The position numbers were made by a program, and so were the translations under genes. From assembly GCA_048939465.1 (NCBI GenBank), contig JBHLPL010000008.1:1-32000 (forward strand): a DNA stretch of 32,000 bases, in the 5' to 3' direction. The stretch is from Promethearchaeota archaeon (lineage in GTDB: Archaea > Asgardarchaeota > Odinarchaeia > Odinarchaeales > JBHLKK01). Below, one piece after another: positions 10,375 to 22,975 of the stretch (position 1 is the stretch's first letter; the number at the start of each line of letters is the position of its first letter). The notes beneath the pieces were generated by a model that worked only from the letters and a program-made list of their open reading frames with translations, had not been told where the DNA came from and made no database searches.

Positions 10375-10379
10375 TCTAT

Positions 10380-10727
10380 CTTCTTCTCCACAGGGCTCCA
10401 TCCGAGAGGGTCAAGATGAATTGCGTTGTGTTTAAATGACTTTCTGGTAATTAAGTTTTGGGTTTGCTGCTCGCAAGAGGAGGGTTGCCCGTGGGCATGG
10501 ACATAAAACTCGGTCTGGGAGCGCAGGTCCTGCGGGCACGTCTTGCTCGACAGCGTGCTTGAGTGCTTGTGGTACAGTAGAGATCGAGCTCACCCGGAGG
10601 TGAAAGCCTTCCTGTGCGGTCATTGATCTAGAGCGTAAAGACCTGTCCTCTGAGGAGCCGAAGCGTCCTCGGGAGTATGAAGCCGAGAGGGAGAAAATTC
10701 CTTGTGAAAGCTAGGAGAAGTTCGCAC
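10380..10727 (+). mobile_element. Non-autonomous IS200/IS605-derived element, long class (copy B1)
   Basis: Left end CTTCTTCTCCA..CTCCATCCGAGAGGG..GATGAATTGCG and TTTAAATG (10431) match class A; the internal ~270 nt aligns with 14183-14539; degenerate right end GAAAGCTAGGAGAAGTTCGCAC. Confidence 0.7.
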
Positions 10728-10863
10728 AGTATTCTCCTAACACATTCTTCCTTCTCCTCTTGAATTTCTGGCAAAAACCTTCAATTGCTACTTAGGCTCT
10801 GTTCTTCACGATCGCTTTAGGCAGAAGAATCCACCAATATCGTTAAATCCTTTGGCATTTTAG

Positions 10864-11913
10864 GTGACATCTGAAATGTCCCAAGACGGAAAAAGCAAGA
10901 AGGAGTTGATTCGGGGAGTCTTCGACGGTATCGTTCCGGAAGAGATTCCACTGAACATCGAGCTGGGAGTCCCTGAGATTGAAGCGCAGTATGGGGACAT
11001 AGTCAATATATCGTGCAGGATTTCACGCTTCCGAAGGTTCTATGAAACCGGTGGTCCCTTTGGAAGGAGCAAAGGAACCATCCGGAGATGGGCAGAACGA
11101 TTTGACATAGATACATATAAGTGGCCTAATCCAAAGGCAATAGGTAAGACCCTAAGAGAAGAGATAGCTCATACTGTGAAACAATTTGGTAGCCGATTCA
11201 TTATCTGCAAGATACTGGGTCCAACTGAAACAGCTGAAGGATTCTGCGCTTCGGGTCAGGATGAAAAGGCAAAGCGTCTTGATCAAGTACAGCACAATTT
11301 CGATTTTGCTATGCTGTCCTTTCTAAATCCTGAATCTGCCGGCGAACTACATAAGAGAGTCACTACCTACATCGAGGAATGTATTCGAACTGCTGGAAGT
11401 CTAATGGAAGTCGATGCGATTAGAATCGCAGATGACGCCTTTGATTACAACCGACCCCTATATCCAAATGGCTTCATAGAAACCGTTTACTTGCCCACTC
11501 ACGAGATTCTTGCCAATCTCATTCATAACACAGGAAAGCTTGGGATTATGCACTGCGATGGAGACATTCTCATTCTCAATGTTGCCAAGAGACTAAGCAA
11601 CTTTTACCGTGGATTTCATCCCTTGGACCTGGTATCCAGGATTACCGCGAAAGACGCGCAGAATTGGATAAGACGCCTAGGGGAAGCCAGAAAAACCCTT
11701 CCCGAATCCGTTTTCTTCACGGGGATTCCAGTTGAATTCCTATATGATTCAAGAGTATCTTCAGAGGAATTATGCGAGGTCTGCAGGAAGGCGATACTGT
11801 CAGTAGGAAAAAGATATTTGGTTCTGAGTACGACTCACCGTCCTTTCCCAGGATCTAGTATTAAAACACAAGGTGTGATAGAAAAAATCGGGTCAATAAG
11901 GAAGCTGATTTAA
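10864..11913 (+). CDS. Uroporphyrinogen decarboxylase / MtaA-CmuA methyltransferase superfamily protein
   Basis: IADD..YNRPLYPNGFIETVYLP and GIMHCDGDI follow the URO-D family pattern DD..P..F..P / H.DG. Confidence 0.7.
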   Translation: MTSEMSQDGKSKKELIRGVFDGIVPEEIPLNIELGVPEIEAQYGDIVNISCRISRFRRFYETGGPFGRSKGTIRRWAERFDIDTYKWPNPKAIGKTLREEIAHTVKQFGSRFIICKILGPTETAEGFCASGQDEKAKRLDQVQHNFDFAMLSFLNPESAGELHKRVTTYIEECIRTAGSLMEVDAIRIADDAFDYNRPLYPNGFIETVYLPTHEILANLIHNTGKLGIMHCDGDILILNVAKRLSNFYRGFHPLDLVSRITAKDAQNWIRRLGEARKTLPESVFFTGIPVEFLYDSRVSSEELCEVCRKAILSVGKRYLVLSTTHRPFPGSSIKTQGVIEKIGSIRKLI

Positions 11914-11919
11914 AAAAAA
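11912..11919 (-). terminator. Oligo-T terminator of the thermosome-rpo6 unit
   Basis: A8 on the + strand (T8 on -) 8 nt past the rpo6 stop, at a convergent gene junction. Confidence 0.5.
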
Positions 11920-11926
11920 GAAGGAG

Positions 11927-12322
11927 CTAGTGTTTCACGGACTTGATAAGCATCTTAAGCGGTATGCTTTGAGACTCACCTGACGGTAGTCTCCTTAGAA
12001 TCATTAGCGGCAAAACACCCGCGTTTAGTTCTTCTTCGGCTACTTTGATGGGGTCCATTTTCCCTTCTGTAATATTGAGGATGATTGGTGCTCCCATGGC
12101 GATTTGGATTGCTCTAGCGCCGATTATTCGACTTTTTTCATATCTTGTTAGAGTGGGTGGACCGATTTCTATTTCCATCTCCTCTTTTGACTTTATGCTC
12201 CTTTTAGCTCTTTTTGGGGTTTTCCGTTTCTTACTGGTGCTCTCGGTGCTCTTCTTAGGGGCTTTCTTGGTTTTCTTAATCTTTTTTTGTGTCTTAGTAC
12301 TCTTCTTCTGGTCCCCCAACAC
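11927..12322 (-). CDS. rpoK: DNA-directed RNA polymerase subunit Rpo6 (K); start uncertain (GTG 12322 or ATG 12178)
   Basis: [41 protein letters not shown] is the Rpo6/RPB6 signature. Confidence 0.92.
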
Positions 12323-13937
12323 CTTCAGCTCCGGGTGGCCCTCCCATTTTTTCTTTACTTGATGCTATTACATCGTCAATCCTTAGAATCATCTCTGCTG
12401 CTTCGCCAGCTGACTTGATTGCCTGCTTCTTAACAGATACAGATTCCCAGACGTCAAGCTGACTCATGTCTCTGACCCCACCGTCGTACACGTCGACGCC
12501 TGTCCATTTCTCACCCTTTTCATGCCTAGCTCTCAGTTCCACTAATATGTCGATAGGATCGAGTCCGGCATTTTCTGCAAGAGTTCTCGGAACGGTTTCT
12601 ATAGATTCCGCGAATTTGGTCACCGCCAGCTGTTCTCTTCCACTGAAGCTTTCTGCGTAGTCTCTTATATCCTTTGCAACCTCGATCTCAGATGCGCCGC
12701 CGCCAGCTACGACCTTTGATTCGTGAATAAGGTTCCTAACAACGCATAGCGCGTCATGAAGCGCTCTCTCTGCTTCTTCAACTATCAACTCTGTTCCTCC
12801 GCGAATCAGTATGCTTACTGACTTGGGATTCTTGCAACCCTCAATGAATACCATGTCATTGTCTGAGATTTTTCGCTCTTCGACCAATTCCGCTTTCCCG
12901 AGATCTTCTGGTGAAATATCATCGAGGTTAGTAACGATTTTTCCTCCGGTGGCTCTGGCGAGCTTCTCCAAATCTGATTTCTTTACACGACGAACAGCCA
13001 GTATTCCCTGCTTAGCTAGGAAATGTTGAACAAGGTCGTCAATTCCTTTTTGACCTAACACAACATTTGCGCCGCTGGCCTTTATCTTATCCACTCTTTC
13101 CTTCAACATGTTTTGCTCTTCTTCAAGGAATGCCTGCATTTGCTCAACCTTAGTTATATTGATTTTGGCGTCAAACTCTGTTTTCTCGACTTCCAATGGA
13201 GCATCTAGGAGGGCTATTTTGGCATTAGTCACCCTCTTGGGCATACCTGGGTGAACTACTTCCTTGTCTAAAATGATACCATTTATATAAATTGTGTCCT
13301 CCAGACTCTCCCCCTGTACCTTTTCGACCTTGATGTTATCAATATCGACTTTGTAGTCCTCACCGACTTTGTCAGCAACCGACCGAACAGCTTTGACGGC
13401 TAGCTCAGCTAGACGATCTCGAGACCCCGCAATAACCTTGGTAGACATTGTAGTCCGGGCAGCCTTTCTGAGCATTTCCTCATTGTCAACTTCGAACTCT
13501 TCCGCGATTTGATCTAGTACTTCAATCGCCCTTTCCGCAGCCTTCCTATAGCCTTCAAGGATTATAGTTGGATGAATATTCTTGTCTAGTAATTCTTCTG
13601 CTCTCTTAAGCAGTTCTCCGGCAAGAACAACAGCGGTTGTTGTTCCATCTCCTACCTCATCATCTTGAGTCTTTGCGACCTCAACCATCATTTTTGCGGC
13701 TGGATGCTGGACATCCATTTCCTTAAGTATTGTGGCACCGTCATTTGTTATGGTTACATCTCCCAGGCTGTCCACAAGCATCTTGTCCATTCCTCTCGGT
13801 CCAAGAGCACTTTTGACCGCCTCGGCAATTACTATTGCAGCATTAATGTTTCCTCGCTGTGCATCTCTTCCTCTGGTTCTTTGCGCACCTTCCTTGAGGA
13901 TCAGCACCGGTGTTCCGCCTAAACCCGATTGCGCCAT
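12294..13937 (-). CDS. ths: Thermosome (group II chaperonin) subunit
   Basis: [41 protein letters not shown]; 547 aa. Confidence 0.98.
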
Positions 13938-14014
13938 TAATCACACACCTCACATGGTTTCTCATTTATCCGATTTTAATCGTAAAAGATTGTTTTAGTA
14001 GCAACTAGAACTTC

Positions 14015-14022
14015 TATATAAA
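14015..14022 (-). promoter_or_regulatory. Putative TATA box of the thermosome gene
   Basis: TTTATATA on the - strand about 78 nt upstream of the ATG; GAGGTG SD before the start. Confidence 0.55.
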
Positions 14023-14182
14023 CCTTACGCTCAAGAAGTCTTATGAACTATTAGAGATACTCTTATTCAAAGCAATAGGCTCCGATTTTAAAGGAATATT
14101 ACTGCGATCAGTAATCACAATCCTATTCCGATAGTTCCCAGAAGAATTCAAAGTGTCAGCCAACCCTATTCTGGTCAATTGT

Positions 14183-14539
14183 CTTTCCTTTTCTACGTGA
14201 GGACAGCCCACCGAGAGGGTTGAGACGAGTTGCGGTATCTTTAAATAACTTTTTCGGCAATTAAGCTTTGGATAGGATGCTCGTAACAGAAAGGTTGCCC
14301 AAAGGCATGGGTGCAAAACCCAGTCTGGGGGTGCAGGCCCTGCGGGTATATCATGCTTGGCAGGGCTGTCCCGTGTCTGCGGCGCACACAAAGGACGTGA
14401 AGCAGCCCGAAGGCGAAAATCTTCCTGTGTATCTGTAGATCCGGAGCACAGAAACCCCCCTCCGAGAAGCCAAAGCGTTCTCAGACGCTAAGGAAAAAGA
14501 GAGGGAGGAGGCCCTTTGCGGAAGCTGGGAGTAGTTCAC
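14183..14539 (+). mobile_element. Non-autonomous IS200/IS605-derived element, long class (copy B2)
   Basis: Degenerate left end (CCCACCGAGAGGGTTGAGACGAGTTGCG), TTTAAATA at 14240-14247, core collinear with B1, right end GGAAGCTGGGAGTAGTTCAC. Confidence 0.75.
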
Positions 14540-14562
14540 AGCTTTGACCTCCGGGCTTTAAG

Positions 14563-20759: not shown

Positions 20760-20884
20760 TCAATATCCCGGGACCTGTCGATTTTCCACTTCATATGGAA
20801 TTTCTTTCTTTTAAATTGTCTCCCCAGTGCCACCCCTTTTGTCTTTCAATGGAACGTGGCAGCTCCCTTTAAGAAGTATTCTGT

Positions 20885-20931
20885 TTTCTTTTCTCCAAGG
20901 AGATCCTATCCGAAAGGGCGGAGTGGTTCAC
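20885..20931 (+). mobile_element. Solo (collapsed) end of the IS200/IS605-derived element (copy S1)
   Basis: Left-end leader TTTTCTCC-AAGGAGA joined to a single hairpin CCTATCCGAAAGGGCGG and the right-end tail AGTGGTTCAC. Confidence 0.7.
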
Positions 20932-20990: not shown

Positions 20991-21443
20991 CTAATGACCA
21001 AATTCCTTCATCAGTATTTTGACGTAAGGTGGATAACAGCATCCTTCAAGTATTTGCTGGAACCCCTCATAGGTTTCGGCGTTCCCATTTTGAGTCGTTA
21101 GTCTTCCTGAGTATATGTTCATGAATTTACGAGAAATATTATCAAGAAGATGGCTGACAGCCTCTTTCGGTAATTTTGTGGAGCAGATCATGGCAAATGT
21201 GATGCCTTGTTTGCTTTTGTGATACACTCTTGCAATTTCGCTGGTTGAGCTCTCTCCTGATTCAAAAGGAGTTGGGATTTTCAGACTCTGTACAGAATTC
21301 TCTAATGTGTTCATGATAGTCAGACTCATCTGGCCCTCAGGCAATGCTGTGTATTTTACTAGACAGTTTCCTTCCTTGCTGAATACATATATCGCCTTAA
21401 TGATTTTTTCATCGGTTTCTTGAAGCCCAGCCATCTTAAACAT
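20991..21443 (-). CDS. Longin-like domain protein
   Basis: IIKAIYVFSKEGNCLVKY (first hairpin), YHKSKQGITFAMIC (later strands) and LLDNISRKFMNIY (helix) follow the longin/sigma-adaptin pattern. Confidence 0.6.
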   Translation of the reverse strand: MFKMAGLQETDEKIIKAIYVFSKEGNCLVKYTALPEGQMSLTIMNTLENSVQSLKIPTPFESGESSTSEIARVYHKSKQGITFAMICSTKLPKEAVSHLLDNISRKFMNIYSGRLTTQNGNAETYEGFQQILEGCCYPPYVKILMKEFGH

Positions 21444-22762: not shown

Positions 22763-22927
22763 TGATTCACTCCATTGTTTCCTAATATTTCTTAATCATT
22801 CTATCTTTTTAAATTAACCTATTCTCAAATCGTTCTTTAATTTAACTTACATATTCTTAAGTATAGTTATACAACTCGCAATTAATTCCTTCTATCAATA
22901 AACCACATCTCTTCATAAAGATTTTTG

Positions 22928-22975
22928 CTTTCTTCTCCGCAAGAAGACCCCGGCCGAAAGGATGGGGCGGTCCGC
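22928..22975 (+). mobile_element. Solo (collapsed) end of the IS200/IS605-derived element (copy S2)
   Basis: TTCTTCTCCGCAAGAAGAC is identical to the A1 left end, followed by one hairpin CCCGGCCGAAAGGATGGG and a degenerate tail GCGGTCCGC. Confidence 0.7.

Follow-up and report, generated by a model that had tools for sequence, protein, structure and literature searches.

A gene-less IS200/IS605 element of an Asgard archaeon that probably carries a stand-alone, enlarged TnpB omegaRNA

Introduction

What does a structured RNA do between the ends of an insertion sequence that has no gene of its own? Two repeats, B1 and B2, raise this question in a 32,000-nucleotide (nt) stretch of an Asgard archaeon, hereafter the window: positions 1 to 32,000 of contig JBHLPL010000008.1 of a Promethearchaeota archaeon (assembly GCA_048939465.1), which is contig C137 of our host assembly G000 (1.96 Mb, 91% complete). 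B1 and B2 have their two ends and their TATA box in common with a class of about 220 nt (class A), whose length they exceed by about 125–130 nt. The original prediction, made from the letters of the window, had noticed these features, and alignment and end profiles agree with it. It had gone on to propose an expanded form of the class A RNA, with an omegaRNA-like fold under structural selection, and possibly an undescribed noncoding RNA family or the partner of a different effector. Our analysis leads to a related but different answer. With a probability of roughly 70%, class B is a nonautonomous IS200/IS605 element, of the kind called palindrome-associated transposable elements (PATEs), that carries a stand-alone, enlarged TnpB omegaRNA.

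Results

Boundaries and mobility of class B

End profiles identify about 60 two-ended elements in G000, which fall into classes A (about 220 nt), D (250–313 nt), C (295 nt) and B (342–400 nt). Class B comprises 12 two-ended copies of 342–400 nt, 2 more degraded full-length copies and several fragments, and as a repeat it stands far above chance (BLAST E values down to 1e-56). B1 and B2 are 65% identical and alignable end to end. B1 is the most diverged intact copy, at 76% identity to the class B consensus, and B2 stands at 84%. The proposed start of B1 was correct, its end moves from 10727 to 10725, and the start of B2, placed by family register, moves from 14183 to about 14187 (Table 1). One copy elsewhere (L019, G000:C48:18818-19217) has about 50 extra nt within the insert described below, and an internally deleted copy lies on two contigs (L020 on C125, and the end of C4) with matching flanks.

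The ends of class B belong to a known type of transposon. The same profiles match B1, B2 and an autonomous tnpA+tnpB element of the host assembly (G000:C105:999-2845), which encodes an intact IS200-type tnpA. TTAT lies directly upstream of 7 of the 12 copies, as against 4.8% of random 12-nt windows, and the motif is degenerate at B1 and B2 themselves (14182-14186 at B2). At the other side the element terminates in TTCAC. These two motifs, the TTAT target and the terminal TTCAC, are the transposon-associated and transposon-encoded motifs of ISGst2 (10.1101/2023.03.14.532601). No inverted repeat of at least 20 nt was found between the B ends. Nor do the copies hold an open reading frame (ORF): all three plus-strand frames are broken in most of them, and the sole protein similarity is to TnpB C-terminal tails. 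B1 is absent from the orthologous site in both congeners, G001 (78% complete) and G002, and the site of B2 holds no B element in G001 or in the approximately 200 nt examined for G002; the intergenic flanks are too diverged among congeners for exact insertion junctions to be visible. B1 and B2 are thus probably lineage-specific insertions. PATEs lack terminal inverted repeats, have near-terminal palindromes and are too short to encode a transposase (PMC3119063). With its IS605-type ends, a target motif and no ORF, class B fits this definition.

Two end-only elements of about 50 nt also lie in the window (20879-20931 and 22923-22971). They consist of one shared hairpin with left and right terminal sequences and resemble the 52-bp terminal-only PATEs of Haloquadratum. 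Another ORF-less element, in G028, a genome of another family (L163:1600-1860 on G028:C1), has the left end, TATA box and right end around a core of about 200 nt unlike that of B.

Transcription of the plus strand toward the right end is favored by the promoter and by G-U bias. The TATA box recurs at a constant position in B copies, and tnpB genes with such ends have it upstream as well. An IscB element, whose omegaRNA carries a 5' guide at the element end, was rejected on this orientation and for want of a HEARO match; an RRXRR search for iscB gave no matches, and its controls were likewise silent.

Homology to the clade-D omegaRNA

The middle 70 nt and the 3' stem of B, terminal pseudoknot included, are homologous to the omegaRNA of clade D, a TnpB type with a rearranged RuvC-II; class D elements correspond to the 3' end of its tnpB, a third type of that gene. 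Local alignment of B with the clade-D core gives p=0.002 against shuffles. A stretch of 35 nt aligns ungapped and forms a 10-pair hairpin in which both sides change at 7 of 10 pairs. When B and D elements, intermediates and tnpB genes are taken together, this hairpin has 92% of cells paired and 45 two-sided changes versus 18.0 in shuffles, counts that are inflated by kinship of the sequences, and slid controls give at most 14. A covariance model built from B copies alone matches clade-D tnpB 3' ends with E values of 1e-9 to 1e-19. These comparisons indicate, at the level of sequence and paired structure, that the B core is homologous to the clade-D omegaRNA.

The same B-only model has no match among the class-A copies in the window. 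Since it matches clade-D 3' ends and no class-A copy, B is not an expansion of class A, as had been proposed; that candidate also shows no cluster link, and its alignment gives p=0.06. The suggestion that B and class A go with different TnpBs is borne out by the homology of the B core. An AAAAC motif said to be shared with class A is not the class-A majority state. The P1 sequence closest to B comes from the G028 subclade of clade D, and the same C-terminal reading frame is traceable in B. Degraded coding sequence was rejected as an account of the whole element and accepted for the core, with its trace of the clade-D C-terminal frame. Gene-less intermediates between the clade-D and B RNAs, with a B-like P1 or P2a and a D-type 3' half, occur at loci L105, L115, L085, L089 and L048, and in G000 at C77:14661-14942 and C96:11989-12278.

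G001 has an intact clade-D tnpB (P0001), and the type occurs widely among archaea, within and outside the Asgard lineages. The clade-D proteins exceed the NF040570 guided_TnpB cut-off, and in their RuvC-II a glycine (G247) replaces the glutamate, with another glutamate (E298) about 50 residues on. By motif inspection they appear to show the TnpB2 pattern of PMC10530073.

Fold and covariation

The RNA-like core of B spans about 270 nt and has three B-specific parts: a 5' domain of about 65 nt, an insert of about 45 nt that separates P2 from P3, and the P3 interior. Our 13-helix model has 83.6% of cells paired and 55 two-sided changes versus 29 in shuffles. The insert hairpins carry 7 two-sided changes each, a count reached in 0/1000 and 3/1000 shuffles. 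The covariation seen in P1 is reached in 12/1000 shuffles and the weaker covariation of P2 in 68/1000. In the pseudoknot, the final six bases of the element pair with an internal hexamer; the two strands are 85% paired, with 5 two-sided changes versus 1.6 (12/1000 shuffles), and B1 alters both of them together. A 7-bp long-range helix from the 5' domain to the P3 interior is 88–91% paired and is also chosen by RNAalifold. Outside its strand, the 5' domain has competing folds that covariation cannot separate. Folded singly against shuffles, B2 gives z −1.8 and a near-consensus copy from G002 z −3.3.

Structural conservation as such had been predicted, and so had an omegaRNA-like fold larger than that of class A; both claims are borne out, by helices other than those first quoted. 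The quoted motifs are all present (the B1 loop hairpin lies one base off, at 10590-10603), and they are features of these two copies. Across 18 sequences the four quoted hairpins have 7 two-sided changes versus 6.2 in shuffles, and 207/500 shuffles score as high. Covariation in the larger alignment is thus lost for these hairpins and kept by others. The GAGGA-type helix has only 64% of cells paired, and the change in the B1 loop hairpin has its pairing partners elsewhere, among the changes of helix P2 at 10553-10558. Pairing of the TGCC/GGCA hairpin agrees with the alignment (82–84% paired), without covariation. The GCAG/CTGC hairpin is Watson-Crick complete mainly in B1 and B2 and sits inside a different, longer P1.

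The 5' domain was not found outside B elements by profile search. Among 37 comparisons made for it, two gave low p values: one clade-D locus has a core that resembles it weakly (p=0.002), the other loci falling short of significance, and 13 nt match a hairpin of a class-C omegaRNA (p=0.006). The hairpin in question has a tetraloop and is conserved among the omegaRNAs of class-C tnpB genes (L024 on G000:C55, L136, L140 and L143). Its likeness to the 5' domain could go back to a mosaic origin, or the two RNAs could have converged on a stable tetraloop.

Probable selection on the fold

The G000 copies are 64–82% identical pairwise and radiate almost star-like, with terminal branches of 0.03–0.43; because the tree is nearly star-like, their changes are mostly private. 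Among these copies, compensatory cells number 10 in the core helices, whose definition comes from clade D, versus 4.8 expected from shuffles (p=0.006), and 5 versus 2.5 in the B-specific helices (p=0.07). The pair is preserved in 18 of 22 double changes. In stems, tolerated C>T changes outnumber disruptive G>A changes (64/515 versus 29/516, p=1e-4), and loops show no such excess. Substitution rates are 0.14 in stems and 0.18 in loops. The evidence favors, with caveats weighed in the Discussion, some selection on the plus-strand fold after the burst that would have produced these copies.

Distribution and the search for a partner gene

B is present in G000 and in G002, whose copies are 95% identical to the consensus; it was not found in G001. 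G028 holds three copies at 56–63% identity to the consensus, two with the left end and TATA box and none with an ORF. Relics occur in Jordarchaeum, which belongs to the host's phylum. A decayed one lies between ubiquitin-like and E2 genes at the same site in Candidatus Jordarchaeum madagascariense (G031) and in G040, and it is seemingly shortened further in the other four species (loci L234:770-1030, L236, L235 and L237-L239). The presence of B in three Asgard families indicates that the form is old.

Wider searches added little to this range. Covariance models run over about 150 + 80 Asgard genomes, with 12–23 candidates scored per genome in the large runs, found B in these three families only. 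A 22-nt pattern had true matches in G000, G002 and G028 only, among 400 Asgard genomes, and the other matches inspected were unrelated, mostly coding DNA. Such scans use exact patterns and are insensitive: those of metagenome contigs gave 22 chance-like matches, none reaching into a B element; those of genome contigs gave one true match, a Jordarchaeum fragment; and those of viral contigs, phages and plasmids gave no B. The Rfam 15 covariance models, with HEARO, IS605-orfB-I, RAGATH-18, the sotRNAs, group I introns and SRP among the families considered, have no match over B copies at E<=1 in the window or E<=5 in the homologues (11 loci). B therefore has no Rfam family, as the idea of an undescribed family would have it, and yet its ancestry is known through the clade-D core.

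Near-complete clade-D tnpB genes with a stop within the match are present in G002 and G028, and the G002-type gene is intact in another assembly. No gene commonly neighbors or is linked to B copies.

Feature positions and neighboring genes

The positions of all features are collected in Table 1.

Table 1. Features of B1 and B2 in the window
Feature	Position	Strand	Basis
B1, complete gene-less IS605-type element, 346 nt	10380..10725	+	Model R2, 231.9 bits
Target motif position 5' of B1: TCTAT (family consensus TTTAT)	10375..10379	+	TTAT enrichment
B1 left end with subterminal hairpin	10380..10416	+	Left-end profile, E 1e-12
B1 archaeal TATA box; predicted start near 10460	10431..10438	+	Same position in other copies
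B1 5' domain: small tetraloop hairpin, region with competing folds, strand 10513-10519 complementary to 10668-10674	10460..10523	+	Alignment
B1 omegaRNA core: P1 10527-10551, P2 10553-10558/10590-10595, P2a, pseudoknot strand 10584-10589	10527..10595	+	Clade-D homology
B1 two-hairpin B-specific insert	10596..10638	+	7 two-sided changes per helix
B1 stem P3: outer part common with clade D, interior remodeled	10642..10694	+	p about 0.005 versus clade-D RNAs
B1 right end: subterminal hairpin, terminal hexamer 10720-10725 closing pseudoknot	10695..10725	+	Right-end profile; both pseudoknot strands changed together
Predicted B1 guide (host flank)	10726..10745	+	TnpB architecture
B2, complete gene-less element, about 353 nt	about 14187..14539	+	Model R2, 262.2 bits
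B2 TATA box; predicted start near 14270	14240..14247	+	Sequence
B2 5' domain; strand 14323-14329 complementary to 14480-14486	14270..14333	+	Alignment
B2 omegaRNA core: P1 14337-14361, P2 14363-14368/14403-14408, P2a 14373-14385, pseudoknot strand 14397-14402	14337..14408	+	Clade-D homology
B2 two-hairpin insert (14409-14451) and P3 with remodeled interior (14455-14508)	14409..14508	+	Alignment
B2 right end, terminal hexamer 14534-14539	14509..14539	+	End profile
Predicted B2 guide (host flank)	14540..14559	+	TnpB architecture

The predicted guides do not appear to be directed at other host sites, as no match to TTAT plus guide was found elsewhere in the assembly. B1 lies between tauE, on the minus strand, and a 349-codon ORF, its left end being 5 nt away from the start codon of tauE, on the opposite strand. 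Upstream, G001 and G002 have about 170 nt that are missing from the window here, an AT-rich, TATA-like segment among them; B1 may have replaced the tauE promoter region. The 349-codon ORF (10864-11913) is divergent from tauE and has no Pfam match, and its start is kept in both congeners. B2 lies between a thermosome-like gene and a coiled-coil ORF. Because B2 ends 23 nt upstream of the start codon of the latter (14563), read-through from the element promoter would enter the coiled-coil gene. Genes downstream of B copies lie in either orientation, 0–340 nt away. Elsewhere in the window, a Longin-like ORF (20991-21443; PF13774, E 2e-4, under the cut-off) is in keeping with an Asgard host.

Discussion

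Taken together, the ends, the target motif, the missing ORF and the clade-D core suggest how class B might persist. A Y1 TnpA such as that of the C105 element would move it in trans by peel and paste. Its left-end promoter would transcribe the scaffold of about 270 nt and continue into the flank, which would serve as the guide. A TnpB of clade D, or some sister of it still to be sampled, would bind the core and pseudoknot in trans and cut the empty site after excision, such that repair by recombination would restore the B copy. Copies with a misfolded RNA would be lost more often, which would explain the compensatory changes. The B additions are peripheral (5' of P1, between P2 and P3, and inside P3); they would stabilize or protect the free RNA and are probably not nuclease contacts. 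Expression, TnpB binding and cleavage by the B RNA are what IS605 biology would predict. The G000 copies may stem from an old burst, and many may be inactive now.

Several results weigh against this account. The covariation of the long-range helix and the 5'-domain fold is no higher than in shuffles, and the right-end hairpin shows none. Since the fold model was partly drawn from the same sequences, its pairing percentages are biased upward. B1 folded singly does no better than its shuffles (z −0.8), and A>G and T>C changes show no asymmetry. On the protein side, no tnpB 3' end with the B additions was found in the fetched loci, in searches that were not exhaustive; no protein tail reads like B among about 270 clade-D relatives; and G000 itself holds clade-D tnpB fragments only. 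With no such tnpB at hand, B would be either natively stand-alone, borrowing a clade-D TnpB, or the remnant of an unsampled tnpB lineage.

The protein results bear on a first alternative, in which the B RNA partners a different effector, such as a Cas12f-like protein, a TnpB derivative that has diverged or lost its nuclease activity, or a host protein recruited through the B-specific domains, and the clade-D core reflects ancestry only. The relics in Jordarchaeum, the lack of any B-type tnpB and the lack of an intact clade-D gene in the host assembly would all suit such a partner, and so would the age of the additions: ORF-less homologues at 54–63% identity occur in another Asgard family, with the insert helices kept by compensatory changes. 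However, every part that a TnpB binds (P1, P2, pseudoknot, P3 and right-end hairpin) has been retained, in covariation with clade D; clade-D tnpB or its remains accompany the best B copies in their genomes (G000, G002 and G028); and no candidate gene travels beside the copies. We consider a different effector unlikely.

The covariation itself would lose its meaning if the present copies were inert relics and the two-sided changes came from ancestral sub-lineages and a hand-picked structure. Long terminal branches and low pairwise identity, the deleted or degraded state of several copies, the poor folding of B1 and a stem rate only slightly under the loop rate are what inert copies would show. 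Against this, most double changes preserve pairing although the G000 tree is nearly star-like, the core helices, whose definition was independent, exceed shuffles in compensatory changes, B1 has private compensations in P2 and the pseudoknot, and the G002 copies stay close to the consensus. This alternative, which we judge quite improbable, concerns present activity and is compatible with the origin proposed here. Finally, it is very improbable that the host retains B elements for their effect on nearby genes, whether as portable promoters, as structured leaders or in an antisense role: the places of B2 before the coiled-coil start codon and of B1 beside tauE, where the congeners have more upstream DNA, would suit it, but downstream genes have no fixed orientation or distance, the window copies are not shared with the congeners, and the fixed-site copy in Jordarchaeum is decayed.

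Beyond our preferred explanation, that of a PATE carrying an enlarged TnpB omegaRNA, lies a bolder and doubtful possibility. Class B could be an old, natively free-standing omegaRNA lineage without its own nuclease gene, whose extra domains, among them a 5' domain held to the 3' stem by the long-range helix, serve expression from its own promoter and capture of TnpB or another effector. If so, it would be a specialized RNA parasite of TnpB systems across Asgard families, and no passing deletion product. More broadly, the natural series of scaffolds from about 145 to about 270 nt on one core marks where an omegaRNA tolerates insertions, which is useful for guide engineering. Class B also illustrates the elaboration of an omegaRNA once free of overlap with the tnpB ORF, a step that has likewise been proposed in the emergence of tracrRNA-like scaffolds, and it offers a cheap test for copy-by-copy selection on trans-acting guide RNAs.

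Comparison with known systems

Gene-less omegaRNA elements are known, and the kind is therefore not new. PATEs often encode omegaRNAs for use in trans (10.1101/2023.03.14.532601), and stand-alone omegaRNAs, mobilized without effector or transposase, work in trans (PMC10691335). What is new is an enlarged scaffold without an Rfam family that persists in three Asgard families, with no cis-encoded nuclease so far. The PATEs of Haloquadratum walsbyi (PMC3119063) and the ISGst-related PATEs of Geobacillus stearothermophilus have heterogeneous copies and an IS605-type target motif, as does class B. By comparison, none of the tnpB elements found would yield the B core by simple deletion, and its 5' domain, insert and remodeled stem recur in three families. 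The stand-alone omegaRNAs of OMEGA systems (PMC10691335) likewise occur in genomes that also hold effector loci; their function in trans has been shown, whereas that of B is predicted from sequence. In the host genome, the elements of classes A and C are built like B in the type of their ends, in the promoter and in the logic of the terminal pseudoknot; for both, the assembly has a tnpB with a matching 3' end (C2 for A; C55/C70 for C), whereas B has no such counterpart there.

Two omegaRNAs frame the architecture of B. That of ISDra2 (PMC10097598), of similar length (247 nt), also has a pseudoknot between terminal bases and an internal loop and a guide 3' of the right end; its functional scaffold is 116 nt, its 5' part being disordered and dispensable, and its likeness to B is architectural, with no sequence similarity claimed. 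The closest relatives remain the clade-D omegaRNAs (P0001, P0007 and P0036; TvTnpB-like, PMC10530073), which share P1, P2, P2a, the pseudoknot hexamer, the outer part of P3 and the right end with B. Whereas these are about 175 nt long (about 145 nt in the short form) and overlap the tnpB ORF, the B RNA extends the same core to about 270 nt, under its own promoter and free of any ORF.

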